Assembly (NCBI GenBank): GCA_964598025.1 | Contig: CAZRAU010000001.1 | Coordinates: 56,201-120,200, forward strand | Direction of reading: 5' to 3' | Length of the DNA stretch: 64,000 bases | DNA from: an uncultured bacterium | Lineage (GTDB): Bacteria; Arandabacterota; Arandabacteria; Arandabacterales; Arandabacteraceae | Shown: positions 12,662 through 31,899 of the stretch, in pieces | Position numbering within the stretch: position 1 is the stretch's first letter | How the letters are laid out: the number at the start of each line of letters is the position of its first letter | Translations under genes and position numbers: made by a program | Notes under the pieces: model-generated | What the model was told of the DNA's origin: nothing | What the model saw: only the letters and a program-made list of their open reading frames with translations | Database searches by the model: none

Positions 12662-13222
12662 ATGAAAATCAATACATCGCGCTTCGGCGGGATCGAGGTC
12701 GAAGATCAGTCGGTTGTGAACATGCCTGAGGGGATGTTGGGCTTCGCCGAGTTCAAGCAGTTTGTGCTTATCCAGCACAACCAGGGATCGCCTTTCCTCT
12801 GGTACCAGGCCGTGGACGAGCCCAATCTCGCATTTGTGATGGTCGATCCCTTCACCTTCTTCCCCGACTATGAAGTGCTGCTCTCGCGTGATGACCTTGA
12901 TGCGCTCGAAGCCGTGGAGCTCGGCAACCTCGCCGTCTTCTCGGTCGTTGTGATACCGGAGAATCCGGAGGACATGACGGCCAACTTGAGAGGCCCTGTG
13001 CTCATAAACGTGGATAAGAAGATCGCCCGTCAGGTGGTCCTTAACGACGAACGCTACTCTCCCCACCAACGCATCCTCGAAACGGTTGGGGGGGCTGGGG
13101 AGGGCCTCGCCCCGGGGGGAAGCGGCGGGAGTGCCTTCGCAGGCAGCGATGCGGGCACACCGGTGGGTGGCCGGGCCGTGGGTGTGTGTGGCGCCGGCAT
13201 GCGCGACGGCGGGGGTGAGTGA
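12662..13222 (+). CDS. fliW: flagellar assembly factor FliW, with an unusual Gly-rich C-terminal tail
   Basis: The FliW core is FGGIEVEDQSVVNMPEGMLGF...PFLWYQAVDEPNLAFVMVDPF. The last ~45 aa (GGAGEGLAPGGSGGSAFAGSDAGTPVGGRAVG...) are low complexity. Confidence 0.85.
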   Translation: MKINTSRFGGIEVEDQSVVNMPEGMLGFAEFKQFVLIQHNQGSPFLWYQAVDEPNLAFVMVDPFTFFPDYEVLLSRDDLDALEAVELGNLAVFSVVVIPENPEDMTANLRGPVLINVDKKIARQVVLNDERYSPHQRILETVGGAGEGLAPGGSGGSAFAGSDAGTPVGGRAVGVCGAGMRDGGGE

Positions 13223-13557
13223 TGCTTATCCTCAAGCGCAAGATGGGAGAGGGAATAGACGTAGGGGACAATGTACGCATTGTGCTCAAGGAGATAAGCG
13301 GAGGTCATGTCAAGATAGGAATAGAGGCCCCCACCGATATCAGAGTCAAACGCAGCGAGACCGCCACGAGCATAGAAGCGGAAAACCTGAGGGCGGCCAA
13401 GTCATGCCTCGCGGTAGCCAAAGACCTCGGCTGCCTGGATGGCATAGCCAACGTGAACCGATTGGAATGTGGAAAGGCCGAATGCCCAATGGGGGAGGCG
13501 GGCGGACTGCACCACGGCGAGGGTATCCGGAAAGCAAGAGGGGGGCCCGATGCTTAG
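13222..13557 (+). CDS. csrA: carbon storage regulator CsrA (FliW-partner type, extended Cys-containing C-terminus)
   Basis: MLILKRKMGEGIDVGDNVRIVLKEISGGHVKIGIEAPTDIRVKRSE is a classic CsrA fold sequence. The ATG overlaps the fliW stop (TGATG). At 111 aa it is much longer than typical CsrA. Confidence 0.85.
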   Translation: MLILKRKMGEGIDVGDNVRIVLKEISGGHVKIGIEAPTDIRVKRSETATSIEAENLRAAKSCLAVAKDLGCLDGIANVNRLECGKAECPMGEAGGLHHGEGIRKARGGPDA

Positions 13558-14755
13558 GCGCGACTGCAGGCACTTCCCGGGCGATAGGCCGTGCGGCTTC
13601 CACAAGCAGGATCTTGCGACCTGCGAAACCTGTAGCCATTACGCCCCCCGGGGCACGACGATCCTCATAATAAAGCTCGAAGCCTTGGGCGACGTACTTC
13701 GGACAACGTCGGTTCTCCCGGCGCTCCACCGACAATACGACCCTTGTCACATTACCTGGATCACCTCAGGCGCCGCGCGGGACCTCTTTGCCGGCAACCG
13801 CCTGGTGGACAAGGTCATATCCGCTTCTGATGACTACCTCCCGACGCTCTTAAGCAGGACCTTCGATGTGGTGATAAACCCCGATGCCGCGGCACGTCCA
13901 TGCGAACTTGCCGCCATCTCGCGGGGGCACACGGCTTTCGGCTACCGGGCAGGTCCCGAAGGTATCGTCGTGGCCCTGAACAGGGCCGCGGACCGTTGGT
14001 TGGAGATGGGTGGTTGTGACGCGGCGAAGCGGAGTAACACCAAGACGTATCAGCAAATACTTCACGAGATCTGTGCGCTGGCCCCCAAAGGTCAGCACAT
14101 CGTGCTGAATCTGACCCAGGACGAGGCCGGAGCAAGAGAGGATCTCGCCCGGGAGATCGGGATAGATGTCACACGACCGGTCGTTGGGCTCAATACCGGA
14201 GCCGGCAAGCGGTGGAAGCTCAAGAAGTGGAGGACCGAAGGGTTTATTGAACTCATAGAGATGATCCTCGATGGGTCCGATGCCCAGGTGGTCTTGTTGG
14301 GTGGGGAGCTCGAGGGTGGGAGAAACGCCTTCATGAAGTCGAAGTTCGACCGGAGGGTGAGAAACCCTGTCTCGCGCAGTATAAGGCGCTTCGTACGCAC
14401 GGTCGATCTGTGCGACGCAGTGGTAACAGGCGACACGCTCGCGCTCCATGCGGCACTGGGCCTCAAGAAACGTGTGGTGGCGCTGTTCGGTCCCACATCT
14501 GCGGCCGAAATCGATATGTATGGACTGGGCATCAAGGTGGTCCCGGATATCGACTGCGTCTGCTGCTATAGCACCGACTGTGACAGGGAACCCAACTGCA
14601 TGGATGTCATAAGCGCGGATGAGGTATACGAGCATCTCTTGGACGAGATGAAGATTGCGGCCTCCGGACGAAGTGTGGACCGGATCGCCGAAGTGGGCGA
14701 TGTCCGGAGTGATGGGGAAGCATGTATGGTTGGCGAGCCAATTGCGGATTGGTGA
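13550..14755 (+). CDS. GT9-family (heptosyltransferase-like) glycosyltransferase with Cys-rich N-terminal extension
   Basis: ILIIKLEALGDVLRTTSVLPAL...LNTGAGKRWKLKKW...VVTGDTLALHAALG matches GT9/ADP-heptose transferase motifs. The N-terminus reads CRHFPGDRPCGFHKQDLATCETCSH. The ATG at 13550 follows AGAGGGGGG and overlaps the csrA stop. Confidence 0.75.
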   Translation: MLRRDCRHFPGDRPCGFHKQDLATCETCSHYAPRGTTILIIKLEALGDVLRTTSVLPALHRQYDPCHITWITSGAARDLFAGNRLVDKVISASDDYLPTLLSRTFDVVINPDAAARPCELAAISRGHTAFGYRAGPEGIVVALNRAADRWLEMGGCDAAKRSNTKTYQQILHEICALAPKGQHIVLNLTQDEAGAREDLAREIGIDVTRPVVGLNTGAGKRWKLKKWRTEGFIELIEMILDGSDAQVVLLGGELEGGRNAFMKSKFDRRVRNPVSRSIRRFVRTVDLCDAVVTGDTLALHAALGLKKRVVALFGPTSAAEIDMYGLGIKVVPDIDCVCCYSTDCDREPNCMDVISADEVYEHLLDEMKIAASGRSVDRIAEVGDVRSDGEACMVGEPIADW

Positions 14756-14854
14756 GCTATGATCCGGCCGATCCGACTCCCCTTTTGTGCCTCGCCAACC
14801 TATCCATATTAGGACGCCGGGCAGCTCGTGACAGCCCGGGATGGAAGGAGCCCA

Positions 14855-15967
14855 ATGGAGTTTACCGGAGAGCGCTACGTACCCGGAGCGGCAGGGCAGG
14901 AAGAGATTTATGTCGAGCATATGAGCCGCTATCGGTTTGCGGAAGGCCTGGCCGGCGGGCGGTGGGTGCTTGATGTCGGCAGCGGTTGCGGTTACGGCAC
15001 GTATCATCTGGCCACGGTGGGTGCAGGTCTCGCGCTGGGGATCGACATCTCCCCCGAGGCCGTGGCCTACTCCCGGAGCAATTATCGCCATCCCCGCCTG
15101 TGTTTTGCGGTGATGGATGCCTCACGGCTCAGGCTGAGGAGCGGGTTCCATCTTGCAACCTGTTTCGAGCTCATAGAGCACGTGGAAGATGCTCAGGTTG
15201 TGCTCCAGGGTGTTCATGAGGTGCTGGATGAGTCGGGTGTCTTCGTCGTCTCCACGCCCAACAAGGCGACCTATGTGGCAGGCGGCGAAGCTGGAAAGAA
15301 CCCCTTTCACGTGAGGGAATACTATCGTGAGGAATTCAAAGATCTTCTTGGGAGTGTATTCCCTTCGGTGCGGGTTCTGGGCCAACACTGGGTCGAGGGC
15401 ATGGCCCTGAGGCCCCACCCGGTCCTGGAGGGTCGTGATGTGGTGAGGGCGGCAAGCCTGCGGATTGCCGGGGGCGGAACTGCCATCCCCATGACCGACG
15501 GGGCTGCTTCGGACCCCGCCTGCAGGTGCGCGACGGCCGGCGAGGCCCATTCGAATTGCGCTGCGTGCGGGGAACCGCCGTACTTCATAGGTCTCTGCGC
15601 CAAGAACGATATTCTCGATGACGTCATCCGCAAGCTCAATCCCTTGGCCTTCTACGGTAGGGCCCTCAGATACGAGAGCCTGAAAGCTGCCGCCATGCGA
15701 CTGGAGCGCGAATTCGACCGGAGAGGCGAGTGGGCAAGGGGGCTGGACCGGGAGATCGGCTCGAGGGACGAAACGATACGCAGCCTCCAACGCGAGCTCG
15801 CAGAAGTGCGAAACGAATTCAATGAACGCGGCCGGTGGGCCGAGCGCCTGAACGGCGAGCTCCGCCGATCCGGCGCTCTGGTGGAGAGATTCGCCGAGGA
15901 GAACAGACATTTGAGGGAATCGCTGGCGGCCCGGCGACCGGCCGGCAGGAGCAAGGTGGCAAAATGA
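14855..15967 (+). CDS. class I SAM-dependent methyltransferase with C-terminal coiled-coil
   Basis: The start MEFTGERYVPG and the SAM motif VLDVGSGCGYGT are present. An RBS GGAAGGAG precedes it. The C-terminal ~100 aa are a repetitive coiled-coil (RGEWARGLDREI / RGRWAERLNGEL). Confidence 0.75.
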   Translation: MEFTGERYVPGAAGQEEIYVEHMSRYRFAEGLAGGRWVLDVGSGCGYGTYHLATVGAGLALGIDISPEAVAYSRSNYRHPRLCFAVMDASRLRLRSGFHLATCFELIEHVEDAQVVLQGVHEVLDESGVFVVSTPNKATYVAGGEAGKNPFHVREYYREEFKDLLGSVFPSVRVLGQHWVEGMALRPHPVLEGRDVVRAASLRIAGGGTAIPMTDGAASDPACRCATAGEAHSNCAACGEPPYFIGLCAKNDILDDVIRKLNPLAFYGRALRYESLKAAAMRLEREFDRRGEWARGLDREIGSRDETIRSLQRELAEVRNEFNERGRWAERLNGELRRSGALVERFAEENRHLRESLAARRPAGRSKVAK

Positions 15968-18900
15968 AGCAGCCGACGGTCATATCGATACTTGCACTCA
16001 ACAATCTTGCGCTCACCAAGCAGTGTCTCGAGAGCATCTTCGAGAATACGACCGCGCCCTATGAGGTCTGCGTCGTCAATCAGGCCTCGGCCGACGGAAC
16101 CAGGGAGTATCTTGACAGTCTGGAGGATAAGATAGATGCGGTACATCTACCCAAAAACGTCGGTTTCATAGGCGGCAACAACCTGGTCATGGATCGCTAC
16201 CCGGACCGGGACATCGTTCTGCTCAATAACGACACGCTGGTGGAGAAGGGTTGGCTGAAGGCCCTGGAAGGATGTGCCTACAGCGACTCGAGCATAGGCA
16301 TCGTGGGGGCGAAGCTCGTCTATCCCGGCGGCAAGCTCCAGGAAGCCGGCGGCGAGATATTCAAGGATGGTTCGGGCAGAAACATCGGGAAGAACGATGA
16401 TCCCGAGCGGCATATATATAATGTATGTCGTGATGTCGACTACTGCTCGGGAGCATGTCTTTTCGTAAAACGGGTCGTGCTGGACAAGGTAGGGTATCTT
16501 GATGAGATCTTCAGCCCCGCCTACTGGGAAGACACCGATCTATGCTTCAGGGCCAGAAAAGCCGGCTGGCGCGTGGTTTATGAGCCCGATTCCAAGGTAA
16601 TGCACCTGGAGGGCGCGACCGCCGGTTTGCCCGGCCGGAAGTCACTTTCCGAGAGCCTCCAGCAACGCAACAAACCTAAGTTCATGGCCCGGTGGGGCGA
16701 GGAGCTCATGTCCCACCGCAGCAATGTCTTTGAGGTAAGGCCCCGGTACGGGAAAGAACAGATCCTCGTGGTGCTGCCCTTCCTCCCCATGTATGACCGT
16801 GCAGCCGGCGAGAAGAGGTGGTTCCATACGCTGAAGATCCTTACCCGGCACTTCGATGTCACCTTTCTGGCGCGAAACGGCGCGGGCCAGCTCAAGTATA
16901 TAAACGACCTGGAGAAGATGGGCATCACCGTTTTTCATACCGACCAATCACGCCTCGAGCCCATGGGCTGCTCTGAGAAGGGCCCGCTCCGGATCGACTT
17001 TCCCTTGCTGCTAAAGTCCAACGACTTCAAAGCCGTAATCGTCGGGTTCTATCATATGGCGCACCAGTACTACCGCGACATTCGCGAGCACTCGCCCCGA
17101 AGTGTGCTGATCGTGGATTCTTACGATCTTTGCTGGATACGCCAGCGGCGCAAGGCGGACTTGACCGGTGAGGCCGGTGATATCTGGGAAGCGCTCGAGG
17201 TGAAACGCCGGGAGATCGCCATGTACGGCAAGACCGATATGGTGCTTACGGTGACCGAAGAGGACAGGCTACGGCTCTTGCAGGAGCTCCCGGGTCTGAG
17301 CGTAGGTATTTCTACGGACATACACCCTCTCACCGGTGAATGCCGGGAGGGACGCGGCCGCGACCTGGTTTTTGTGGGTAACTACAAACACGATCCGAAT
17401 GAGGACGCCGTGCTTCACTTCGCGCGCGAAATCTTCCCCCTGATAAGAGATGCGATTCCCGGGATCAGGCTCTATGTGGTAGGCAATTCCCCGACACCGC
17501 CGGTCGAGGCCCTTGCATGTGACGATATCATCGTGACCGGCTTCGTGCCCGAGGTGACGCCCTACCTGCTTGAATCACGGGTGTTCGTGGTGCCGCTTCG
17601 TTACGGCGCAGGCTTGAAGGGCAAGATCGGAGAGGCGCTTGCCGCCGGCATCCCGATCGTGACCACCTCGATAGGTGCGGAGGGGATGAACCTCCTCCAC
17701 CGCAAGAACGCCATGATAGGCGACACGCCTGAGGATTTCGCCAGGTGTGTCGTCGAGGCATACACGGATGACGCTCTCTGGGACACGCTTTCCAGCGAGG
17801 GGAAGCGCCTGGCCGATGAGAGCTATAGCGTCCGGGCGGTCGAGAAACACTGGCTGGAGATAATAGACTTCATTCGCGACGGGAGAAAAACACGGGAGAA
17901 GCCCGACCGGGGAGCTGGTACGGCAGGCAAGCGCGCCGGGTCGCCGGGCCGCGGCTTCAAGCGGACCACGGCACCACCTGAGATCGTGCCCGACGTGGGC
18001 ATAGTGATTCCCGTCTTTAACAACCTGGACCTGACCAGAACCTGCTGGACCAGTGTGAGGAAAAGTACCGGGATTCCACACCAGGTCGTCATAGTGGATA
18101 ACGCATCCACCGAGGATGTCGCCTATGAAGCCGATCAGAACAACCTCGAAGTGATTAGGAATGAAACCAACCGTGGCTTCGCATATGCATGCAACCAGGG
18201 GATAATGCATACCCACGGCGATTTCGTAGTGATCCTCAACAACGACACCATAGTCACTCCTGGCTGGCTTGAGCGGCTGATGTGGCACATGGGTGATGAT
18301 CCGGACATGGGCATCCTCGGGGTCACGACCAACTATGCGGGGAGCGAACAGCAGATCCCGGCTACCTATGAGACTGAAAGGCAACTCTACGATTTCAGCG
18401 AAGAGATCTACCGGAAGAACCGTCACCGCAGGAAGGAAACAGGCAAGGTGGTCGCCGTCTGTGTCGTGTTAAGACGTAAGATGCTCAGAGATGTGGGGCT
18501 CTTCGACACCCGGTTCGGTCTGGGCAACTTCGAGGATGACGACATCTGTCTGAGGGCGAGGCTCGCCGGCTACAAGGTGGCTTTTGCCAGGGATGTGTTC
18601 ATCCACCATGCCGGCAGTAAGACCTTCCAGGTGCTCAAGCTTGACTATGGCCGCCTGATGGAGGAGAACCGCAGACGATACGAGGCCAAGTGGGCGCCGC
18701 TGGCCCGTGAGTTCTGCCGCTGCGACGCCGGGGACATGGCCGAGACCGGGCCCGAGAGAAGCCACCTGACCTGCATGGATGCAAGACAGAACGAGTGCGC
18801 CGACCACCCCGAAGGCGGGCCCATCATCAGCCTGGCTGACATTCAGATTTCTGCGGATGAGACTTTGGCAGGTCACCTCGTCAACAGGGTGCGGGGTCTG

Positions 18901-19926
18901 GACGCGAACACGGCCTTCTTCCTGGCACCCGGGACCGTCGCGCCCCCCGGCTGGACTTCCGTGCTTGAGGCGGCCCTGACGGCTGACGGCGTGGGCTGTG
19001 TTCTGGCTGCGTCCAACAAGGGTCTTGGCGAGGACCTTGTAGAGCCGGGCTATCGCAAGCTCGGCAAGCCATTTGTCAGGTTTGCCGCCAAGCATGCGAA
19101 GGCATGGCAAGGCCGGATACAGAGTATAGAGATGGGCTTCCCGGCCGCCATGGCCATAAGCAAGGACGTCCTTCTCAAGTACGGTCTGAGCGATGAATTC
19201 AACACACCGGGAATCCTCCTCGATCTCCAACGGAAGCTGGCGGACGCCGGGCTGCGCATCGTCTGTGCGAAGGAGACCTACGTCCATGCCGCCGACTTCG
19301 CGACCGAGGAAGCCGCGAAGGAGATGGAGGCCGTCCTCCAGCTCCTCGCAGCCAGGAAGTGCTTGGGCGAGGAGAAGTCAGTGCAGTCGCTGGGGGCCCT
19401 TGACCAGGCTCTGGCCGCCAAAGACGACTATACGGAAGCCCTCTACGAGAGAGGTCTCGTGTTTTCGCTCATGGGCAAGAAGCGACAGGCGATCGCCGAT
19501 TTCGAGAGGGTGCTTGATCTCAAGCCGTCCGATTCGCGGGCCGTAAACAATCTTGGATGCCTCCACTTCGAGATGGGAGACCAGGCCGAAGGCGAACGCA
19601 GGTTCCGGGACGCGATCGGGGCCGATGCGGGCAACTGGGAAGCCAGGAAGAACCTGGCGGATCTGCTGCTCTGCCGGGGCGACTCGGACGAGGCCATCGA
19701 GATATATGCTTCACTGATTCAAGAACATGGAGAGCGGCCAGGAGTCTATGCATCCGTAGGGGAGGTCTTCGCCAACCTCGGAGATCTGGAATCCGCCGGG
19801 CACCTGTTTGAAATGGCGCTCCGGATCTTCCCTGAAGACGAAGCTGCCCGGCGAGGCCTCCTTGCGGTCCAATCGGCGATGTCGACCACGAACCAAGCAG
19901 GAAGGAGCCAAATCGATGAGGGATAA
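15964..19926 (+). CDS. 1321-aa multidomain glycosyltransferase: GT2 + GT-B (GT4-like) + GT2 + uncharacterised region + C-terminal TPR repeats
   Basis: ATGA start/stop overlap with the methyltransferase. GT2 module 1 (SILALNN...DTDLCFRARKAGW) covers about 15.97-16.63 kb. A GT-B/GT4-like module (VGNYKHDPNEDAV...GLKGKIGEALAAGIPIVTT) covers about 16.75-17.9 kb. GT2 module 2 (VGIVIPVFNN...FEDDDICLRARLAGY) covers about 18.0-18.6 kb. TPR repeats (AEYNERGLVF...) cover about 19.35-19.9 kb. Confidence 0.8.
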   Translation: MKQPTVISILALNNLALTKQCLESIFENTTAPYEVCVVNQASADGTREYLDSLEDKIDAVHLPKNVGFIGGNNLVMDRYPDRDIVLLNNDTLVEKGWLKALEGCAYSDSSIGIVGAKLVYPGGKLQEAGGEIFKDGSGRNIGKNDDPERHIYNVCRDVDYCSGACLFVKRVVLDKVGYLDEIFSPAYWEDTDLCFRARKAGWRVVYEPDSKVMHLEGATAGLPGRKSLSESLQQRNKPKFMARWGEELMSHRSNVFEVRPRYGKEQILVVLPFLPMYDRAAGEKRWFHTLKILTRHFDVTFLARNGAGQLKYINDLEKMGITVFHTDQSRLEPMGCSEKGPLRIDFPLLLKSNDFKAVIVGFYHMAHQYYRDIREHSPRSVLIVDSYDLCWIRQRRKADLTGEAGDIWEALEVKRREIAMYGKTDMVLTVTEEDRLRLLQELPGLSVGISTDIHPLTGECREGRGRDLVFVGNYKHDPNEDAVLHFAREIFPLIRDAIPGIRLYVVGNSPTPPVEALACDDIIVTGFVPEVTPYLLESRVFVVPLRYGAGLKGKIGEALAAGIPIVTTSIGAEGMNLLHRKNAMIGDTPEDFARCVVEAYTDDALWDTLSSEGKRLADESYSVRAVEKHWLEIIDFIRDGRKTREKPDRGAGTAGKRAGSPGRGFKRTTAPPEIVPDVGIVIPVFNNLDLTRTCWTSVRKSTGIPHQVVIVDNASTEDVAYEADQNNLEVIRNETNRGFAYACNQGIMHTHGDFVVILNNDTIVTPGWLERLMWHMGDDPDMGILGVTTNYAGSEQQIPATYETERQLYDFSEEIYRKNRHRRKETGKVVAVCVVLRRKMLRDVGLFDTRFGLGNFEDDDICLRARLAGYKVAFARDVFIHHAGSKTFQVLKLDYGRLMEENRRRYEAKWAPLAREFCRCDAGDMAETGPERSHLTCMDARQNECADHPEGGPIISLADIQISADETLAGHLVNRVRGLDANTAFFLAPGTVAPPGWTSVLEAALTADGVGCVLAASNKGLGEDLVEPGYRKLGKPFVRFAAKHAKAWQGRIQSIEMGFPAAMAISKDVLLKYGLSDEFNTPGILLDLQRKLADAGLRIVCAKETYVHAADFATEEAAKEMEAVLQLLAARKCLGEEKSVQSLGALDQALAAKDDYTEALYERGLVFSLMGKKRQAIADFERVLDLKPSDSRAVNNLGCLHFEMGDQAEGERRFRDAIGADAGNWEARKNLADLLLCRGDSDEAIEIYASLIQEHGERPGVYASVGEVFANLGDLESAGHLFEMALRIFPEDEAARRGLLAVQSAMSTTNQAGRSQIDEG

Positions 19927-21376
19927 GCCGACGCTTGCCGTGTGTATGATCGCTCGGAACGAGGGTAAGAGGCTTCCTACCGCCATAGACAGTGTCAGGA
20001 GGATAGCCGACCAGGTGATAGTCGTTGATACGGGTTCCACGGACGACACGATTGAGGCGGCGCGCTCCCTCGGGGCGGAAGTGGTCGAGTATGCCTGGAA
20101 AGACGACTTCGCCGATGCACGGAACAGGTCACTCGCAGAGGCCCGATGTGATTGGATCCTGTGTCTGGATGCCGACGAGTGGGTTGCACCGGAAAGCGAA
20201 TCCAAGGTGATTGAAGCCCTGTCGGAGGGGGCCGGCGCCTATATGGTACGAATCGAAAGCCGGGTCGATTCTACGGCAGGCAAGGTGTTCGTCAATTTCT
20301 TCCCCAGGCTTTTCCGTAACCTGGAAGGGGTCCGGTTCGAGGGGAAGGTCCATGAACAGGTCGCTCCATCACTCGAAGGCCTTGGTGTGTCGATTGAAGT
20401 CTCCGACATACTGATCAAGCATACGGGCTATGCCCTCTCGGACTCAGACCTTAAGGCGAAGGCCCGTAGAAACGCCGACCTGCTCCTGAAGGATGTGGAG
20501 GAGCATGCCGATGACGCGCTAGCCCTCTTCCACCTGGGCGAAGCCTTCTCAATGCTCGAGCACTTCGAGGAGGCAGTGGAATTTTATGACAGAGCGCTCG
20601 CGGCGGGTGGCCTCGACGGCATAGTCCGCGGTGCCCTGCTCCAGAACAAGGGCACGGCACTTGTGAAGCTCAAGGACTACGAAAAGGCGATCGTCTCGCT
20701 AAGGCAAGCCCGCGAGGTCGATCCCGGGTTGCTCACGGTCCACCTGGTTTTGGCATCGGCCCACTATGGCATGGGGAAGTTCAAGCGGGCGGAACAGGAG
20801 GTGATCTCCTATATCTCCATATGCCGTGAGATAGGACGGGTTAAGCGGATAACCCTCGGGCATGACCCCGACATTCCCAATGCCCTGGTCATGCTCGCCA
20901 GGTGCCGGCTTGCGCTGGGCCGGCTCGACGAGGCAAGGAAGGCTCTCGAGGATGCACTGAGCCTGGATGGGTCTAAGGGTGATGCCCACATGCTCCTGGG
21001 AAGGATAGCTTTTGAGGAGCTCAGGTTCGGCCGGGCGGCGGCCCACTTCGAGAAGGCGGTTGACGCCTATCCCGGCGGAGAGAGGCTTTACTTCGAGCTG
21101 GCCCGGGCATATGTGGCCTGTGGTTCCAACGACAAAGCGATCCGGACGCTGGACAGCGCGATAGAGAACGGAATGGAAGGGGCCGATCTTCTGAGGTGTC
21201 TCGGGGTCCTCAAGATAAAGCAGAAGGATTTCGAGGGTGCGATAGATGCCTATCGCCGGACGCTGGACGTCGATCCCGGCGATGCCGACTCGCGGAAGAA
21301 GCTCGCCGGACTGTATCATGCCCTGGGCAAGACCAATCTTGCGGAAGCAACCCTTGCCGGATGGTCGGGCCGGTGA
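19916..21376 (+). CDS. GT2-family glycosyltransferase with C-terminal TPR domain (GmaR-like architecture; putative flagellin glycosyltransferase)
   Basis: LAVCMIARNEGKRLP...VIVVDTGSTDDT...DWILCLDADE is GT2 with a DxD-like motif. The C-terminal ~250 aa are TPR repeats. An RBS AGGAAGGAG precedes it, and it overlaps the upstream gene by 11 nt. Confidence 0.8.
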   Translation: MRDKPTLAVCMIARNEGKRLPTAIDSVRRIADQVIVVDTGSTDDTIEAARSLGAEVVEYAWKDDFADARNRSLAEARCDWILCLDADEWVAPESESKVIEALSEGAGAYMVRIESRVDSTAGKVFVNFFPRLFRNLEGVRFEGKVHEQVAPSLEGLGVSIEVSDILIKHTGYALSDSDLKAKARRNADLLLKDVEEHADDALALFHLGEAFSMLEHFEEAVEFYDRALAAGGLDGIVRGALLQNKGTALVKLKDYEKAIVSLRQAREVDPGLLTVHLVLASAHYGMGKFKRAEQEVISYISICREIGRVKRITLGHDPDIPNALVMLARCRLALGRLDEARKALEDALSLDGSKGDAHMLLGRIAFEELRFGRAAAHFEKAVDAYPGGERLYFELARAYVACGSNDKAIRTLDSAIENGMEGADLLRCLGVLKIKQKDFEGAIDAYRRTLDVDPGDADSRKKLAGLYHALGKTNLAEATLAGWSGR

Positions 21377-21515: not shown

Positions 21516-21542
21516 TAAAGTAATTCGCAAACCTTGCGATAG
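21516..21542 (+). promoter_or_regulatory. sigma-28 (FliA)-type promoter candidate for the flagellin gene
   Basis: TAAAGT, then a 15-nt spacer, then GCGATAGG. The consensus is TAAA-N15-GCCGATAA. It lies about 215 nt upstream of the flagellin ATG, and the leader is rich in GGA/AGGAAG motifs. Confidence 0.5.
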
Positions 21543-21757
21543 GTCATACGGGAGTTGGATTAAAGGCCGTATAAGGGATCATCCTATGTGCAAAGAACCG
21601 TGGATCGAAAGGAGGTGGGTTCTTTACTTGCCTGCACCTACCTGGTGCGTATTCCGTCCATCTTCAGGAAGTAGAACCTTGGTGCCGGTCATGAAGGCCG
21701 GATCCCAAGCAGGCAAGGAAGCCCCGAGGTCAAGACGATCAAAAGGGGGTTGTTGAA

Positions 21758-22600
21758 ATGGCGAATGCCGACCTCAGTCGTATTAACGCAAACATTGGTG
21801 CGTTGAACGCTCTTAACGCGCTCCGCGACGTCAATCAGAAACTCGCCCTGCATCAGCTCAGGCTGGCGACGGGCAAGAAGATCAACTCGGCCGGCGATGA
21901 TCCGGCGGGTATGACCTTCGCAAAGAAGCTGGATTCCAGGGCGAGAGGCCTTGCCGTCGCCCGCGACAATATCGGCGACGTTCAGAATCTTATGGCGGTT
22001 GCCGAGGGCGGTATCGAGAACATCAGTGAGATTCTGATCACCATGAAGGAGAAGATCCTTCAGGCCGCCAACGATACCATCGGTACCTCCGAAAGAGCTG
22101 CCGTCGAGAGCCAGCTGGATGACCTGGCCGCCGAGATCGACCAGATCGTAGCCTCCACCACATGGGGCGGCGTTACGCTTCTGGATTCCACATACACCGG
22201 CAAGCAGTTCCAGGTCGGCGAGCAGACTACCGATACGCTGAGTTTCTCAATAAGCCAGAATCATCAGGCTGCTTCTCTCAGTGTTGCGGATGCGAATCTG
22301 GACGTGACTACCAGTGCGGCGGCATCGACTTCGCTGAGCAATGTCAATACGGCCATCGACACCATAAACACGAGCCTTCAGTCGATAGGTTCGGTGTCTT
22401 CACGGATGTCGATCAAAGAGGCCAATATCTCTGTCGCCATCACCAACGTGACCGCATCCTATAGCCGTATTTTCAATGCGGACATGGCGAGCGAACAGCT
22501 CGAGGCCACAAAGTACCTGGTCCTGCAGCAGACGGCTACGGCCATGCTTGCTCAGGCCAACCTTGCTCCTCAGAGCATACTGCAACTGATCACCGGTTAA
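21758..22600 (+). CDS. fliC: flagellin (short, 280 aa; Ser/Thr-rich central region)
   Basis: The N-terminus LRLATGKKINSAGDDPAGMTFAKKL and C-terminus EATKYLVLQQTATAMLAQANLAPQSILQLI are flagellin N and C helices. An SD AAAGGGGG precedes it. Confidence 0.9.
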   Translation: MANADLSRINANIGALNALNALRDVNQKLALHQLRLATGKKINSAGDDPAGMTFAKKLDSRARGLAVARDNIGDVQNLMAVAEGGIENISEILITMKEKILQAANDTIGTSERAAVESQLDDLAAEIDQIVASTTWGGVTLLDSTYTGKQFQVGEQTTDTLSFSISQNHQAASLSVADANLDVTTSAAASTSLSNVNTAIDTINTSLQSIGSVSSRMSIKEANISVAITNVTASYSRIFNADMASEQLEATKYLVLQQTATAMLAQANLAPQSILQLITG

Positions 22601-25102: not shown

Positions 25103-25875
25103 CAACGATCGTCGGAATAGTAGTGGGCGGCGGATTGCTCTTCCTGGCCATCTTCCAGGGTGGTGGTGTAGGAGTGTTCATCAACATGCCGGCGCTTATG
25201 ATCACGGCCGGGGGTACGCTTGCCGCAACGCTCATAAACTACCCTCTCGGTGATATGCTCAGAGTGGTCAAGGTCATCAAGAACGCCTTCCTTCACAAGA
25301 TGGAATCGCCCGAGCAGATGATAAAGGCACTGGTGACCTTCGCCGAGAAAGCCCGGCGTGAGGGGCTCCTGGCCCTGGAAAAGGATGCGTCGGCCATCGA
25401 AGATCCCTTTATGAAGGGAGGCCTTGAGATGGCAATAGACGGCCTCGATCCGGATCTGGTGACATCCATGCTCAGGATGGAGCTCACCTTCGTGAGCGAG
25501 AGGCACAAACGCGGTCAGGGCATGTTCAAGGCGATGGGCAAGTTCGCGCCCGCCTTCGGCATGATCGGCACCCTGATCGGGCTCATACAGATGTTGAGAT
25601 CCATCGAGGACCCATCGGCCATCGGCCCCGGCATGGCAGTGGCACTGATAACGACCTTCTACGGCACTCTGATCGCCAACCTGGTATGCATACCGCTGGC
25701 AGGCAAACTGGAGACGATATCCGAGCATGAAATCATGGTGAAGGAGCTCGTGATCGAGGGCATCAGATCGATCCAGTCGGGGGACAGCCCAAGGGTGGTG
25801 GACCGGAAGCTCAAATCGTTCCTTGCCCCAAAGATGAGGGAGAATCTTGAGACGATCAAAGCCGGAGCAAGCTGA
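25093..25875 (+). CDS. motA: flagellar stator protein MotA
   Basis: Four TM helices are predicted, and GMIGTLIGLIQML is a MotA/TolQ/ExbB motif. It has a GTG start. Confidence 0.9.
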   Translation: MDVTTIVGIVVGGGLLFLAIFQGGGVGVFINMPALMITAGGTLAATLINYPLGDMLRVVKVIKNAFLHKMESPEQMIKALVTFAEKARREGLLALEKDASAIEDPFMKGGLEMAIDGLDPDLVTSMLRMELTFVSERHKRGQGMFKAMGKFAPAFGMIGTLIGLIQMLRSIEDPSAIGPGMAVALITTFYGTLIANLVCIPLAGKLETISEHEIMVKELVIEGIRSIQSGDSPRVVDRKLKSFLAPKMRENLETIKAGAS

Positions 25876-26624
25876 TGCCGGTCACGATAAAGAAGAGGGA
25901 AGTGGAGGAAGGGGCCAGCTGGCTCACCACTTTCGGTGATATGATCACCCTGCTTTTCACGTTTTTCGTACTCGTCTATTCCTTCTGCTCATTCAACCCG
26001 GGCGAGTGGGAGACGACTTCAGGCTCCATAAAGGGGGCGTTGGGCGTCATACCCGGTACCAAAGGTGACCGCGTGATCCCCGGGGGCGGTTCCGGGGGCT
26101 TCCCCGGGCATCTCGGCGTCGTGCCGCTCTTCGGCGAGCCCTTTGTGTTCGAAGAGTCCTCACCCAAGAGACCGGCTGAGGAGTTTACCAGAATCCGCGA
26201 GAAGCTGGCGGAAACCGAGGGAATCGAGGTCGAGGAGACTGAGACGGGCTATCTGTTCAGGATTGCCACGCCCGTTCTGTTCGAAGTCGGGAGCGCGGAG
26301 ACCAAGCCTGCCGCGAGACCCTTCCTCAGGGCCATCGCGAAGGCTACATACCAGGCACCGGGCACCATTATTGTGACGGGACACACCTGCGATCTTCCCA
26401 TATCGACTGCGGACTTCGAGTCCAACTGGGAACTGTCTGCGCGCAGGGCCACACACGTCTTACGCGTAATCATGGCCGATGCCAGTCCCGATACCAGGTT
26501 CGTCGCACTGGCACGAGGACAGTACGACCCTCTGATACCCAACCGGAACGAGCTGTGCCGGGCCAGAAACAGAAGGGTGGAGATCAGATTCGACCTGGAG
26601 GGAGGCCTGCCGTTTGAGCCCTGA
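25875..26624 (+). CDS. motB: flagellar stator protein MotB (OmpA-like)
   Basis: The TM segment WLTTFGDMITLLFTFFVLV carries the conserved proton-binding Asp. The C-terminal OmpA peptidoglycan-binding domain is present (NWELSARRA...NRRVEI). Confidence 0.85.
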   Translation: MPVTIKKREVEEGASWLTTFGDMITLLFTFFVLVYSFCSFNPGEWETTSGSIKGALGVIPGTKGDRVIPGGGSGGFPGHLGVVPLFGEPFVFEESSPKRPAEEFTRIREKLAETEGIEVEETETGYLFRIATPVLFEVGSAETKPAARPFLRAIAKATYQAPGTIIVTGHTCDLPISTADFESNWELSARRATHVLRVIMADASPDTRFVALARGQYDPLIPNRNELCRARNRRVEIRFDLEGGLPFEP

Positions 26625-27378
26625 GACCTGGCCCAAAAGACCGGATAAGCCTGAGGAGGCCGACGACAGTTTCATGGTATCGTATTCGGCCCTTATGATC
26701 CTGCTCCTTACGTTCATGATACTGCTGGTGACACTTGCGAATTTCAAGGAGCCGCGCTTCAGAAAGGCCATAGGGTCGGTCAGGGGGGCCTTTTCGTTTC
26801 TGCCCTATGCCGGCGGCGACGAGATTATGGCGCACGGATCGCCCGGCTTCTTGCCCGAGAAAGTCCTGGCCAGGGCCACCACGGATGAACAGGACGAGGG
26901 AGCCTACGAACGTGTCGTAGAGGAGATGATGGCGAAGGCGAAGTCGCCGGACCTGGCGGGTTTCGAGGTGGAGGTGAGTAATGATGGTCTGGCGATCAAG
27001 TTGTCTGATTCACTGATGTTCGAGCAAGGTCGGGCGGAGCTAAGGCCCGGAATCCTCTCTCTCATGGATCTTCTGGCTGAGGTCGTGAATGCCAGACCAG
27101 GGAGAGTTTCCATCATTGGAAACACGTGCGATCTTCCAATATCGAACAAGGAATTCCCATCAAACTGGGAGCTTTCGATCATGAGGGCCGTCAATGTGCT
27201 TCATCATCTTGAGGCGCGAGGAGTAAGTCCGGAATCCCTGTATGCCTATGGGGTTGCCGATCAGAGACCCATTGTTCCGAATGAGGACGAGGCGTCAAGA
27301 CGAGAGAACCGCCGGGTAGAGGTGTACATTGCAAATCGTGGCGGGCAGGTTGATACGGCAAGCGAGGTGCTACATTGA
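26614..27378 (+). CDS. MotB-like paralog (OmpA-like) lacking the conserved TM aspartate
   Basis: Its architecture matches MotB (TM, then an OmpA domain with NWELSIMRA...NRRVEV). The TM reads FMVSYSALMILLLTFMILLV, and aligned by eye it places Ala where MotB has Asp. Confidence 0.75.
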   Translation: MSPETWPKRPDKPEEADDSFMVSYSALMILLLTFMILLVTLANFKEPRFRKAIGSVRGAFSFLPYAGGDEIMAHGSPGFLPEKVLARATTDEQDEGAYERVVEEMMAKAKSPDLAGFEVEVSNDGLAIKLSDSLMFEQGRAELRPGILSLMDLLAEVVNARPGRVSIIGNTCDLPISNKEFPSNWELSIMRAVNVLHHLEARGVSPESLYAYGVADQRPIVPNEDEASRRENRRVEVYIANRGGQVDTASEVLH

Positions 27379-28952
27379 ACACGAGGGCAGCTGATGTGAA
27401 TGCGGGTCAGCCCATTGAACGTACAAACAACAAAGACAGGGATGAAACCACAAGATCGTTGGCTCGTGCGCTATCCGGCGCACTGGATGCCCGAAATCCG
27501 AGGGCGAGAGGGCACTCACACCGGGTTGCCATGTATGCGATGGCGATAATGAACGAGCTGGAGCATGATGGTGATCCGGCATATCAGGATCTGCGTGACC
27601 GCGTGAGGATAGCCGCCCTTCTCCATGACGTCGGCAAGATCGGAATCCCCGACAGTGTGCTCCAGCGGGAGAGCGAGGTTGGTGACGATGGGAGCCGGCT
27701 TCTGAGACAGCATCCGGTCCTTGGGGCAGAGATCATGAGCTCATGTGAGGGCCTCAAAGAGGTGGTTCCGGGGGTTCTATATCACCATGAGCGGGTGGAC
27801 GGATCGGGATATCCTTTCGGGTTGACGGGGAGGAGCATTCCCCCTTCGGCCAGGGTGATCGCGCTTGCCGATGTTTTCGATGCCTTGACCACCGACTACG
27901 GGGTTGAGGAAGTATGTTCACACGAGGAAGCCCTGTGCCGGCTGAAAGGCGATCTGTCCTCAGGATTCGATCCGGACGTACTTGAGGCGCTCTCCAGGGC
28001 ACACCACAGCGGGGCTCTCCGGCATGTACGCCTGCCACATAGGCAAGAGCCGTCGGATGAGGCCGTCGATACGGTTGTGGAGAACGTATACGGCCGTCAG
28101 CTGACGTCGGTTCCGTCGCTGCCGGAGGCAATCTATAAGGTGAACTCACTTCTGGAAAGTCAGGAAGCGTCCCTGAAGGAGATAGCCACGATTCTGTCGA
28201 GCGATTCAGGGCTCGCAAGCAGGGTACTTAAGCTTGTGAATTCAGCATACTACGGGTTGCCCCGGATGGTCTCGACGATCCCCCTGGCAACGACCATTCT
28301 GGGGATCAGGGCGATCAAGAACCAGGTTGTGAACATCGCTTATGCGGATGTCATGAAAGAACTTGGTGGACGTCATGCGGAATACCGGATTCTCTGGACG
28401 CACGCCCTCAAGACAGCCGCCTGGGCGCGCATGATCTGCTCGGAGATCTCCGACATCGATCCCGAGGAGGCCTTCACGGCCGGGCTCATACATGATGTAG
28501 GACGGGCGCTGTGCCTCAGGCTCAGACCGGATACCTATGGGGGGCTCGTTACCCAGGCGGAGGTCAGCGGGAGACCATTAATCGCGATCGAAGAAGAATT
28601 GATAGGGTTCGACCACATGAGCATGGGTGGATGGATGGCAGCGAAATGGATGCTGCCGGGGTCACTGGTCAACTCGATACGGTGGCATCATGACCCGGAA
28701 CGTGTGGCGGACCAGGGGCGGGAGGCATACGAGCTCATACGCATAATCCACATAGCCGACATCGCGGCCAGGGCTTGCGAGGCGGTGGAGGTGAACTTCG
28801 TACCGTTTGTTTTGCGGGAGATAAGTCCGAGGGTGCTCAGGGAGCTTGGGAGCGCATATCTGGTGGATCTTGAACACTTCAAGGAAGCGGCCGAAGAGGC
28901 CGAAAAACAGTTAGAGGAGACTTTTGCCGAAGCCGCCGTCCATGTTTCCTGA
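27375..28952 (+). CDS. HD-GYP domain (c-di-GMP phosphodiesterase family) fused to C-terminal HDOD domain
   Basis: The HD region has HSHRV...ALLHDVGKIGIP...YHHERVDGSGYPFGL (HD-GYP). The C-terminal half reads SLPEAIYKVNSLLES...LASRVLKLVNSAYYG...LIHDVGRA (HDOD). It has a TTG start overlapping the motB' stop. Confidence 0.8.
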   Translation: MNTRAADVNAGQPIERTNNKDRDETTRSLARALSGALDARNPRARGHSHRVAMYAMAIMNELEHDGDPAYQDLRDRVRIAALLHDVGKIGIPDSVLQRESEVGDDGSRLLRQHPVLGAEIMSSCEGLKEVVPGVLYHHERVDGSGYPFGLTGRSIPPSARVIALADVFDALTTDYGVEEVCSHEEALCRLKGDLSSGFDPDVLEALSRAHHSGALRHVRLPHRQEPSDEAVDTVVENVYGRQLTSVPSLPEAIYKVNSLLESQEASLKEIATILSSDSGLASRVLKLVNSAYYGLPRMVSTIPLATTILGIRAIKNQVVNIAYADVMKELGGRHAEYRILWTHALKTAAWARMICSEISDIDPEEAFTAGLIHDVGRALCLRLRPDTYGGLVTQAEVSGRPLIAIEEELIGFDHMSMGGWMAAKWMLPGSLVNSIRWHHDPERVADQGREAYELIRIIHIADIAARACEAVEVNFVPFVLREISPRVLRELGSAYLVDLEHFKEAAEEAEKQLEETFAEAAVHVS

Positions 28953-29025
28953 ACATGCCATGGCCGGGGTGGAGTATGTGCTCTACCCGGACTGTCCCGG
29001 ACGGCCGCTTGGAAGGAGCAATCGC

Positions 29026-29904
29026 ATGGGAAACCATCTAGATGCGTTCGTGCAGTATCCCATATACCCTTCACTGACCTGGCTGGAGAAGGCTCTTCTC
29101 CGCACCAGAATGCCCTGGCCGGCCAGGTGTCCGGTCTGCGGTTCTACGACCCTTATTACCGATGTCGGCCGGAGCCTGCGAGAATCATGCAAGTGTCTGC
29201 GGTGCAAGTCCACCAACAGGCAGCGCCAGATAGCCTATGTGGTCTGTGGGGCTGTGAGCAGAATGACCGGCACCGAGATCGCATCCTTGAAGGAAGTGGC
29301 CGAACAGCAAGACTTGGTCATCTACAATACCGAAGCCGGCCGGCAAGTACACGATCGGCTGGCGGCAATGCCCGGTTACCTGTGCAGCGAGTACTTCGGA
29401 GATGCCTGTACGAGCGGGGATGTGATAGGAGGGAGGATGCACCAGGATCTCATGGCACTCTCATTTGATGACAGGAGCATAGACCTGGTCATATCATCCG
29501 ATGTGTTGGAGCATATGCCCGACCCTTACCGCGCCCACAGGGAAATCCATCGCGTGCTGAAGCCCGGAGGAACCCATGTCTTCACCGTCCCCTTCTACCA
29601 GACCGAATTCGAAGATGAGGACAGAACCATTACCGACATAAGAGGGAACACGGTTTTCATCAAAGACCCCATCTATCACGGCGATCCCATGAGATCGGAG
29701 GGGGCACTGGTTCATAAGATCTTCTCACTGGAGATGCTGGTGAAGCTGGGCAAGATCGGTTTCCGCACCAACATGTACAAGATCTATAAACCGTCCTCAG
29801 GCATTCTCGGGCCCAATGCCCTGGTGTTCGAGGCTGTCGCGCAGGAGGCGGTAACCCAGCGCCGAGAGGCACTGTCGCAAGGCAAAGTGGGAGCCGCAGC
29901 ATGA
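29026..29904 (+). CDS. SAM-dependent methyltransferase (Methyltransf_11-like) with N-terminal CxxC...CxxC zinc ribbon
   Basis: ARCPVCGS...CKCLRCKS forms the ribbon. IDLVISSDVLEHMPDPYRAHREIHRVLKPGGTHVF is a class I MTase motif. The ATG at 29026 follows GGAAGGAG. Confidence 0.7.
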   Translation: MGNHLDAFVQYPIYPSLTWLEKALLRTRMPWPARCPVCGSTTLITDVGRSLRESCKCLRCKSTNRQRQIAYVVCGAVSRMTGTEIASLKEVAEQQDLVIYNTEAGRQVHDRLAAMPGYLCSEYFGDACTSGDVIGGRMHQDLMALSFDDRSIDLVISSDVLEHMPDPYRAHREIHRVLKPGGTHVFTVPFYQTEFEDEDRTITDIRGNTVFIKDPIYHGDPMRSEGALVHKIFSLEMLVKLGKIGFRTNMYKIYKPSSGILGPNALVFEAVAQEAVTQRREALSQGKVGAAA

Positions 29905-31028
29905 CGATACCCGGGAGTCTCAACGGTATGCCGGAGCCAAGGAAGCCGGGGCCCGGCGAGGGGCAGCGTGGTGTGGGTACGCGTACCGCGCTGGATGCCG
30001 AAGAGCCCTTGCTGCAGGGTCGGCCGAGCCGCGAGGACCTGCTCGACACACTGCGAACCCGCTGCAAGAAAGGCGCGCGGGGCAGGCCTCAGAAACTGGA
30101 TCTCAGCGGCCTGGATTTCTCCGGTGAGGATCTTTCCGGCCTGGACCTTTCCGGCTATGACTTCAGCCGGGCGAACCTGGCGCGGGTCGATCTCAGCGCG
30201 TCGAATCTTGGGTGGGCGAAGCTCCGGGAGGCCAATCTTCACAGGGGGACGCTGACCGATTGCGAGCTGGTCGGGGCTGATCTGCAAGGTGCGAATCTCA
30301 GTGAGTGTTCGGCCGAAAGGTCGGGGCTGGGTGCCACCGATCTGACCGGTGCCGGACTGATCAGTGCGAACCTGCGTCACGCCACGCTTAGCGAAGCAAA
30401 CATGCGCGGCGCTGATCTGCGGGCGGCGAATCTTCAAGGCTGCAATATTCGGAGTGCGGACCTAACCAACGCGAACTGCACGCGGGCCGAACTCCAGGGG
30501 GCCGATCTTCAGGAGAGCAATGTTCTGGGCACCAGCTTTGAAGTGGCTAACCTGCAGAGGGCCCGGCTGCTCGGCATAAAGAACTATCTTAAGGCTAATT
30601 GGATCGGCACGGACATCCGTGAAGTCGATCTCCGTGGTGCCTATCTGATCCGGCGCTTCATATCGGACGAGAACTACCTCTATGAATTTCGAACCCGGAG
30701 CAAGTACCACAAGGTCCTCTACCGCCTCTGGTGGTTGACTTCGGATTGCGGCCGGAGCCTCTCTCGCTGGACCTTCTGGGTGGCGGCGGTGACGGTGGTC
30801 TTCGCGATTCTGTATAGTACCACCGATGTGGACTACGGCGCCCATCGCACCGTCTTCTCTCCTCTCTATTACAGTGTAGTGACTCTAACGACACTCGGCT
30901 ACGGTGACGTAGTCCCGGCTTCGGGTGGGGCCCAGGCGATCGCAGCCATACAGGCTGTGCTTGGCTATGTGGGCCTGGGGGGATTCCTGAGCATATTGGC
31001 GAACAAGATGGCCCGAAGGGCCGACTGA
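29901..31028 (+). CDS. pentapeptide-repeat domain fused to a 2-TM K+-channel-type pore (TTLGYGD selectivity filter)
   Basis: About 200 aa of A(D/N)LxG pentapeptide repeats (ANLARVDLSASNLGWAKLREANLHRGTL...). Then TM1, a pore helix SVVTLTTLGYGDVVP and TM2. ATGA overlap with the upstream MTase. Confidence 0.75.
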   Translation: MTIPGSLNGMPEPRKPGPGEGQRGVGTRTALDAEEPLLQGRPSREDLLDTLRTRCKKGARGRPQKLDLSGLDFSGEDLSGLDLSGYDFSRANLARVDLSASNLGWAKLREANLHRGTLTDCELVGADLQGANLSECSAERSGLGATDLTGAGLISANLRHATLSEANMRGADLRAANLQGCNIRSADLTNANCTRAELQGADLQESNVLGTSFEVANLQRARLLGIKNYLKANWIGTDIREVDLRGAYLIRRFISDENYLYEFRTRSKYHKVLYRLWWLTSDCGRSLSRWTFWVAAVTVVFAILYSTTDVDYGAHRTVFSPLYYSVVTLTTLGYGDVVPASGGAQAIAAIQAVLGYVGLGGFLSILANKMARRAD

Positions 31029-31050: not shown

Positions 31051-31899
31051 ATGTCATTGCTACGATTAGGCAGGAAGAGCGATCCGAAGGGCAAGCTGAA
31101 GAAGGTCCTCGGTGAATACAATCTGCCTTCATTCCCGGGCGCCGTCATGCAAGTGCTTCAGACAATTCGCGACCCCCGGTCCTCAGCGTCTTCGGTTGCC
31201 GATGTCCTCGCAGTCGATCCCGGCCTCTCGGTGCGGGTGCTGCGTGTGGCCAATTCACCGGTGTTCTCCCCGGTTCGAAAGGTCGAGAACCTTGCCCAGG
31301 CGGTAGCTCTTGTCGGACTGACGGAGCTGGAGTCGCTGGTCCTTTCGATAAGCGTCAGGGGAAATCTGCCTCGCGACTCAGCAGAAGGCTACGACTTCGC
31401 GAGATTCTGGCGGGCTTCAGCGAGGCGAGGTTTCGTGGCCCGGGCGCTGGCGGAAATCCTGTGCCCGGCCCGGGAGTCCGAGAGTTTCACGGCGGGCCTC
31501 CTACAGGATATGGCCCTTCCTTTCCTTGCCCATCAGAGATCCAAGGAATACGGTCCGGTCCTTCACCAGTGGCACACCACCGATGTGCTCCTGCATGAGC
31601 TGGAGCGCGAGGTATTCGGCTGGGACCACGCCGAGGTTGGGGCCTGGATCTGTGACGAGTGGAATCTTCCCGAGAGTATAGTCTCTGCCATAGGCAGCCA
31701 CCATCCCGGTGGCGTCCGCAACGGGTGTCCGGTATCGGTGGCTCTAGCGGCCTACCTGCGCGAGGCTGAGGACAGGACCGGCGTGGATAGCCTTATCAAG
31801 ATGGCTGCGACCGAGTATCAGATCAGCGCTGAAAGGGCCGGTGAGATCGTCGAATCGGCGTTCCGGCAAGCGGAAGAATTCACCCAACTCCTCGGTTGA
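31051..31899 (+). CDS. HDOD domain protein
   Basis: PSFPGAVMQVLQTIRDP...SVRVLRVANSPVFS...GLLQDMA...HAEVGAWI are HDOD hallmarks. 282 aa. Confidence 0.8.
   Translation: MSLLRLGRKSDPKGKLKKVLGEYNLPSFPGAVMQVLQTIRDPRSSASSVADVLAVDPGLSVRVLRVANSPVFSPVRKVENLAQAVALVGLTELESLVLSISVRGNLPRDSAEGYDFARFWRASARRGFVARALAEILCPARESESFTAGLLQDMALPFLAHQRSKEYGPVLHQWHTTDVLLHELEREVFGWDHAEVGAWICDEWNLPESIVSAIGSHHPGGVRNGCPVSVALAAYLREAEDRTGVDSLIKMAATEYQISAERAGEIVESAFRQAEEFTQLLG

Follow-up and report, generated by a model that had tools for sequence, protein, structure and literature searches.

Studied flagellin glycosylation mostly involves single-domain transferases that add one sugar, such as Maf, FlmG and GmaR. For longer flagellin glycans, such as those of Pseudomonas (a-type) and Azospirillum, the enzymes responsible are, to our knowledge, poorly defined. 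Up to 11 sugars are added to Pseudomonas a-type flagellin in two stages, and Azospirillum flagellin carries three to four repeat units (PMC3958885). Here we analyzed a 64,000-nucleotide stretch of DNA (hereafter, the window) from an uncultured bacterium of the Arandabacteraceae (contig CAZRAU010000001.1, positions 56,201 to 120,200 of the forward strand). In its flagellar gene region, a gene at 15964..19926 (+) encodes a soluble multi-module glycosyltransferase of 1320 amino acids (aa). On balance, we find it probable that this protein is a soluble cytoplasmic enzyme that lengthens O-linked oligo- or polysaccharide chains on flagellin prior to its export, as part of a multi-enzyme kit.

Tetratricopeptide repeats (TPRs) are used as a marker of flagellin glycosyltransferases (PMC13317340), and those of FlmG bind flagellins (PMC7591256). 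With the TPR-bearing flagellin glycosyltransferases (GmaR, FlmG and the Maf-1 type), the multi-module protein shares the TPR fusion and a flagellin-adjacent gene. GmaR, the flagellin O-GlcNAc transferase of Listeria monocytogenes, likewise combines a GT2 domain (22ao) with C-terminal TPRs, is cytoplasmic and is encoded among flagellar genes. It has a single catalytic domain, however, to which the multi-module protein adds a GT-B module, a second GT2 and a predicted pseudo-GT-A domain. FlmG, the flagellin pseudaminyltransferase of Caulobacter crescentus, is also modular, with a TPR and a GT-B part that are both needed (PMC7591256). Compared by architecture, FlmG differs in carrying its TPRs at the N-terminus and in having a single catalytic domain. 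Its donor is a nonulosonic acid, for which the window yielded no genes.

The protein can also be compared with glycan polymerases. The chondroitin polymerase K4CP (2z86/2z87) also has two GT2 GT-A domains per chain, and adds alternating sugars, but it lacks a GT-B and TPRs, acts on a polysaccharide acceptor and has canonical DXD motifs. The S-layer enzymes WsaE and WsaF of Geobacillus stearothermophilus work with a lipid carrier, Wzm/Wzt export and an oligosaccharyltransferase (PMC2943079), and none of those genes are found here. Their fusion pattern is also unlike that of our protein, with the methyltransferase fused and the GT-B separate. In ABC-transporter-dependent O-antigen assembly, terminators that include methyltransferases and carry a coiled-coil ruler act beside multi-module polymerases (PMC11231755, PMC3482155). 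In E. coli O9a (WbdA/WbdD) and Klebsiella O7 (ORF6), a multi-module polymerase is paired with a terminator that contains a methyltransferase and carries a coiled coil (PMC3482155, PMC11231755); in our locus, a multi-module glycosyltransferase adjoins a methyltransferase with a coiled-coil-like tail. The O9a and O7 systems are membrane-associated, with a lipid-linked acceptor, a kinase-methyltransferase terminator and an ABC transporter, whereas here a protein acceptor is presumed and no transporter gene was found in the window. The multi-module protein thus falls outside the ABC-transporter-dependent polymerase/terminator systems, and the analogy is functional only. It combines two known categories, the TPR-bearing flagellin glycosyltransferase and the multi-module glycan polymerase, and does not form a new one.

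The open reading frame (ORF) of the multi-module protein is open from 15835 on the + strand. Its credible start is the ATG at 15964, which directly follows aggagcaaggtgg and overlaps the stop codon of the upstream methyltransferase gene in an ATGA; the last nucleotide of its own stop codon is 19926. An earlier annotation made from the letters of the window (hereafter, the sequence-only reading) had the same coordinates but a polypeptide of 1321 aa, a count that includes the stop codon. An identical protein of 1320 aa (P0001) is found in the NCBI-derived data, and 46 other full-length relatives share 43-81% identity with it, showing that the gene is real and conserved. It contains no hydrophobic segment (maximum KD19 1.34). 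Pfam searches matched PF00535 (GT2) in two stretches with 138.6 bits (cut-off 23.3), the best being aa 680-844, PF13692 with 86 bits (aa 466-602) and PF00534 with 35.5 bits (the latter two together spanning aa 466-609), and numerous TPR families between aa 1126 and 1300. No Pfam match was found for aa ~900-1120. The layout of GT2, GT-B, GT2 and TPR given in the sequence-only reading agrees with these results: three modules with conserved catalytic-type residues are followed by a C-terminal TPR domain.

Modules 1 (aa 1-250; 15964..16713, +) and 3 (aa 671-915; 17974..18708, +) are GT2 domains of the GT-A type. The best PF00535 stretch lies in module 3 and the second in module 1. HHalign aligned the two modules at 100% (E 1e-40), and they are paralogous GT-A domains. 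We judged residue invariance over the 47 full-length orthologues. Invariant residues in module 1 are N88-x-D90, E189-D190-T191-D192, H214 and E216, and in module 3 D712-N713-x-S715, N759-x-D761, E857-D858-D859-D860 and H881-H882 (47/47 in both cases). In both modules the DxD-type motif is an N-x-D variant, where the first Asp is replaced by Asn and the metal-binding Asp is kept. In the alignment with the chondroitin polymerase structure 2z87 (K4CP), N759-N-D761 coincides with its DCD and DSD motifs. The invariant acidic stretches starting at E189 and E857 are the ED motifs, found ~100 aa past the DxD in the region of the catalytic base, a role that comes from knowledge of the GT2 family rather than from a structure of this protein. 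The motifs listed in the sequence-only reading were partly confirmed. NNDT occurs at aa 88 and aa 759 and FEDDD at aa 856-860, with EDTD at aa 189, but DAD is absent from this protein; the sequence CLDADEW sits in the downstream GT2-TPR gene. When compared with PDB sequences, module 1 had no match at E <= 0.01. K4CP was among the best matches to module 3 (E 9e-8), and GmaR matched it weakly (E 0.0045, aa 6-111 only).

Module 2 (aa 255-655; 16726..17928, +) is a GT-B domain of the GT4 type with both Rossmann-like lobes present, and a PDB profile search gave matches including TarM, TreT, PimA and PimB'. The sequence-only reading had allowed for the middle region falling outside the GT-B fold; the searches placed it inside. 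Residues D278, D385, D388, R393, E417, D425 and H476-x-P-N479-x-D481 are invariant, as are R546-Y-G-x-G-x-K552-G-K554 and E573-G574. The canonical EX7E motif, which the sequence-only reading had proposed to check, is not there; its register was confirmed by the TarM alignment. Module 2 is therefore GT4-like (PF13692 subgroup) and not a canonical GT4.

Between module 3 and the TPRs lies a region that the sequence-only reading had called a fourth region of unclear identity. The predicted-structure model of aa 900-1320 (pLDDT 86.8) consists of a linker, a compact alpha/beta domain at aa ~954-1110 and ~10 TPR helices. The linker (aa ~918-950; 18715..18813, +) is predicted to be disordered (pLDDT <50) and is poorly conserved (column conservation 0.19), while the order of alpha and beta elements in the compact domain is modelled with pLDDT >90. 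This domain 4 (aa ~954-1113; 18823..19302, +) did not match any Pfam family on its own at E <= 5. HHalign aligned it to the profile of module 3 at 99.5% (E 4.4e-23; aa 958-1113 with aa 729-886) and to module 1 with E 5e-10, and gave no alignment to GT-B or TPR profiles. Since it aligns to the module 3 profile, domain 4 is predicted to be a pseudo-glycosyltransferase, a decayed copy of the second GT2. It is a degenerate GT-A domain with lost motifs rather than a fourth enzyme. The first ~60 residues of the GT-A domain, which carry the DxxS nucleotide motif, are missing. At the DxD position NND is replaced by A-P-G, so that the metal-binding Asp is gone, and across lineages this position reads APG, SEG, SGG or STR with no conserved acid. 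The EDDD stretch is deleted, with D1087 as the one acidic residue left. Structure searches with the C-terminal part returned match lists dominated by TPR proteins, with no separate support for the domain 4 fold.

Among the 120 best homologues, domain 4 was found in this exact arrangement only in the flagellar orthologue group. The pair of second GT2 (GT2b) and domain 4, with or without TPRs, recurs in other architectures that do not have the GT-B. In P0129, P0131, P0133-P0137, P0140, P0145, P0146, P0149 and P0171, all of which lack a GT-B, an active-type GT2b is followed ~100 aa further on by a domain 4-type domain, and often then by TPRs. Many domain 4 copies elsewhere have retained an Asp, within x-P-D or x-S-D, that is gone in the lineage of the window, and those with the x-P-D Asp might still be active. 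The most distant orthologues (P0036-P0047, several from Candidatus Eisenbacteria) have a longer, better-aligned segment, VILFQDG...VRILC, before domain 4, where the lineage of the window has the disordered linker. This segment may be the N-terminal beta-alpha-beta element lost elsewhere. Domain 4 appears to decay at different rates in different lineages.

The TPR domain (aa 1119-1316; 19318..19911, +) consists of ~10 helices in the model and was recognised by Pfam and structure searches, and Cps3D was a structural match in the search with the C-terminal part. By analogy with FlmG, the TPRs would recognise flagellin (PMC7591256). The three catalytic modules are the best-conserved parts of the protein, with a mean column conservation of 0.66-0.85 (0.73-0.83 in the GT-B), compared to 0.39-0.53 in domain 4, 0.39-0.61 in the TPRs and 0.19-0.36 in the two linkers. 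On our reading, the protein probably contains three active modules and one pseudo-enzyme domain.

We then considered the genes around it. The gene order in the window is flgF-G-A-H-I-J-N-K-L, fliW, csrA, a GT9-like gene, an S-adenosylmethionine (SAM) methyltransferase gene, the multi-module gene, a GT2-TPR gene, flagellin, fliS, fliD and two motB-like genes. The order from flgH to motB was kept in 12/12 related genomes with enough flanking sequence (44-79% identity; unclassified metagenome-assembled genomes (MAGs) and Candidatus Eisenbacteria). All 12 loci run from flgK-flgL-fliW-csrA through GT9, methyltransferase, multi-module and GT2-TPR genes to fliC-fliS-fliD. The best match among GTDB representatives, with 79% identity, was in the MAG Meg22_46_Bin_89. 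This conserved gene order strongly backs the link to flagellin.

The four glycosylation genes lie directly downstream of fliW and csrA (12662..13557, +; PF02623 and PF02599). The GT9-like glycosyltransferase has a heptosyltransferase fold (13553..14755, +; PF01075; start uncertain, as the ORF opens at 13469) and matches WaaF (1psw) with E 2.7e-6. A role as a BAHT/TibC-type protein heptosyltransferase was unsupported, its only matches being WaaF and 3tov. The methyltransferase (14828..15967, +; likely start ATG 14855) has Pfam matches at aa 43-161 and ends in a coiled-coil-like tandem repeat of ~90 aa. This tail (aa ~285-372) consists of tandem F(D/E)xRGxWAxxLDxE...RDxTIxxLQ repeats with a hydrophobic periodicity of 3.5 residues and is kept in 12/12 orthologues. 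It resembles the coiled-coil rulers found in terminators of O-antigen chains, a likeness measured here as periodicity and motif conservation only.

Downstream of the multi-module gene, and overlapping its stop by 11 nucleotides, is the GT2-TPR gene (19916..21376, +), whose long TPR domain was matched by Pfam. Its product matches GmaR (22ao) with E 2e-29 and the peptide glycosyltransferase SunS (7msp) with E 3e-25 (aa 4-196), and by this similarity it is assigned to the GmaR/SunS-type family. Since it matches GmaR far better than does the GT2 of the multi-module protein (E 0.0045), it is the better candidate for adding the first sugar, and is a probable priming flagellin O-glycosyltransferase. 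The presumed substrate is the flagellin of 280 aa (21758..22600, +; Flagellin_N and Flagellin_C matches), which is 71-91% identical across the orthologous loci. Its central segment (aa 148-193, 46 residues) contains 30% Ser/Thr.

Neighbouring glycosylation genes overlap at their start and stop codons, and the four-gene kit is probably co-transcribed; a promoter and terminator scan within these genes gave results no better than shuffled sequence. None of the four proteins has a hydrophobic segment, which fits cytoplasmic modification before export. We also considered a Maf or nonulosonic-acid system, which was rejected. MAF_flag10 was absent among the best 25 of 26 Pfam families of the multi-module protein (E <= 0.1) and from its three partner genes, and no genes for nonulosonic-acid synthesis were found in the window.

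The modules are also conserved as a unit. Of ~2800 homologues, the 120 best were compared, and almost all of them contain the first GT2, the GT-B and the second GT2 in the same order and near full length (hereafter, the cassette); the GT-B is retained in all 120. The homologues vary from 900 to 2270 aa, with extra GT2, TPR, methyltransferase, radical-SAM, sulfotransferase and WbsX domains. In seven of eight further contexts sampled from more distant genomes, the cassette adjoins genes for flagellin, FliS, FliD, FliW or CsrA, usually also with GT2-TPR genes and methyltransferases. These seven include Paenibacillus elgii (locus L081, where the gene encodes 1357 aa), a FlaF/FlbT locus and a locus with sulfation genes. 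The eighth context (P0072; locus L088, 10001-15523) is non-flagellar; there the cassette is joined to a GT9 domain and its gene is preceded by a methyltransferase-TPR gene.

In the context of P0054 (locus L083, 1057-8049), a flagellin glycosylation island includes an ATP-sulfurylase and a 1738-aa fusion of a sulfatase fold and a methyltransferase. Together with the sulfotransferase domains in other cassette proteins, these sulfation genes hint at sulfated flagellin glycans.

In the explanation that we favour, extension of a flagellin glycan by a kit, the GmaR/SunS-type GT2-TPR protein most likely acts first, placing the initial sugar on Ser/Thr residues of flagellin. The multi-module protein and the GT9-like transferase would then lengthen the chain. 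The two GT2 modules (inverting-type) and the GT4-like module (retaining-type) would probably each add a different sugar, giving up to three residues per cycle. The methyltransferase with its coiled-coil tail would modify or cap the chain, and the TPRs and domain 4 probably keep the multi-module protein docked to flagellin or to the enzymes it works with.

Several observations weigh against this explanation. The first Glu of the EX7E motif is replaced by Ala in 42 and by Ser in five of the orthologues (47/47), and at the second position, E557, 36 orthologues have Glu and the other 11 have Gln. In both GT2 modules the motif reads N-x-D instead of D-x-D. TPRs in other multi-enzyme glycan polymerases serve purposes other than acceptor binding, and Cps3D is among the structural matches. 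Many distant cassette loci in GTDB, at 32-39% identity and from Bacteroidetes, Solirubrobacterales and other groups, lack flagellar genes within 10 kb, indicating that the cassette is not intrinsically flagellin-specific. In one large branch it serves flagellin, and elsewhere presumably other glycans. No nucleotide-sugar synthesis genes that would point to the sugars were found among the genes of the 64-kb window. Finally, we infer that the modules are active, that flagellin is the acceptor, in what order the steps run and what the TPRs do wholly from sequence, predicted structure and gene order, in host bacteria that are uncultured.

These observations also bear on other ways to explain the locus. 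According to the sequence-only reading, the multi-module protein builds the glycan processively as one enzyme, docking on flagellin with its TPRs, adding the first sugar and completing the chain alone. Its three conserved modules and own TPRs are consistent with this, and FlmG is a precedent for a TPR-glycosyltransferase fusion that can suffice for flagellin glycosylation (PMC7591256). Yet the GmaR/SunS-type GT2-TPR, GT9-like and methyltransferase genes always accompany it, its GT2 resembles GmaR only weakly (E 0.0045) and processivity is not readable from sequence, making a single-enzyme route quite unlikely as stated. Alternatively, the three modules could add a repeat unit over and over on a protein acceptor, with the methyltransferase as a cap and its coiled-coil tail setting the length. 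The conserved tail and the translational coupling of its gene to the multi-module gene point this way, as do the methyltransferase domains repeatedly fused to the cassette. Coiled-coil-ruler terminators beside multi-module polymerases are documented (PMC11231755, PMC3482155), WsaE and WsaF bring together a pair of GT2 domains, a GT-B and a methyltransferase with a capping role (PMC2943079), and Azospirillum flagellin has three to four repeats (PMC3958885). Nevertheless, we consider this unlikely. There is no sign of repeats in this system, long chains would have to pass a narrow flagellar export channel, the coiled coil is known only from heptad periodicity and motif conservation, and the methyltransferase could merely decorate a sugar or methylate flagellin. 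We are similarly doubtful of a version where the whole kit is a protein-primed polymerase, with GmaR-like priming, three-sugar repeats, docking by the TPRs and domain 4, and a ruler methyltransferase that fits the product to the export channel.

The product could also be a glycoconjugate other than flagellin, such as a cell-surface polysaccharide, with the flagellar position reflecting co-location or co-regulation only. Most GTDB loci of distant cassette homologues lack flagellar genes in their vicinity, and JGI labels one relative an "O-antigen biosynthesis protein". Against this, the position between csrA and fliC is kept down to 44% identity, the cassette lies beside flagellin in unrelated phyla, and the genes of the window encode no membrane anchor, lipid-carrier priming enzyme, Wzm/Wzt or Wzx/Wzy. 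We therefore regard a non-flagellin product as very unlikely. Another question is whether all three modules are active, as the GT-B or one GT2 could, like domain 4, be a pseudoenzyme with a structural or acceptor-binding role. The EX7E motif is non-canonical with a second Glu that varies between Glu and Gln, and the protein already holds one clearly decayed glycosyltransferase domain. However, the GT-B is highly conserved (0.73-0.83), has invariant polar residues in both lobes including R-Y-G-x-G-x-K-G-K, and is kept in 120/120 of the closest homologues. Loss of activity in one of the modules thus seems rather improbable. Lastly, rather than binding flagellin, the TPRs and domain 4 may drive oligomerisation or the assembly of a complex that includes the three partner enzymes (methyltransferase, GT9-like and GT2-TPR). 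The TPRs of FlmG and Maf-1 bind flagellin (PMC7591256, PMC13317340), which speaks against such a role, although it is compatible with the favoured explanation and the two are not mutually exclusive. We see an assembly role as possible, if somewhat doubtful.

The locus is of interest because flagellin glycosylation islands contain a conserved cassette that has apparently not been studied, and because a pseudo-glycosyltransferase domain is retained in the multi-module protein. The cassette lies beside flagellin in Eisenbacteria-like MAGs, in Paenibacillus and in FlaF/FlbT loci, often fused or adjacent to methyltransferase, GT9 and TPR domains. If it is an elongation machine, it would be a genomic marker for complex flagellin glycans, Paenibacillus elgii would offer a candidate in a cultured host, and domain 4 would be a natural pseudo-glycosyltransferase kept beside active domains. 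If the polymerase alternative were true instead, the O-antigen logic of a polymerase with a molecular ruler would have moved onto a protein acceptor, and the cassette would be its widespread, hitherto unstudied core in the flagellin glycosylation islands of several phyla.

Other features of the window were also noted. Upstream of flagellin (~21517-21757, +) are a sigma-28-like sequence, CTAAAG-N15-GCGATAG, and a leader of ~200 nucleotides with several GGA/AGGA motifs. These motifs, and the fliW and csrA genes upstream, suggest that flagellin translation is under FliW-CsrA control. The two tandem MotB-like genes (25875-26624 and 26614-27378, +; MotB_plug and OmpA) are kept in the orthologous loci, and no MotA was recognised among their scanned neighbours. 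Just past the flagellar genes are three HDOD proteins (27375-28952 and 31051-31899, +; 31911-32768, -), two of which have HD domains. Flanked by them are a methyltransferase-like gene (28924-29904) and a fusion of pentapeptide repeats and an ion channel (29901-31028). Further downstream, two large proteins (57432-58979 and 60384-63173, +), one of them a papain-family protease, end in an FlgD Ig-like domain, which looks like a shared C-terminal sorting or anchoring module.

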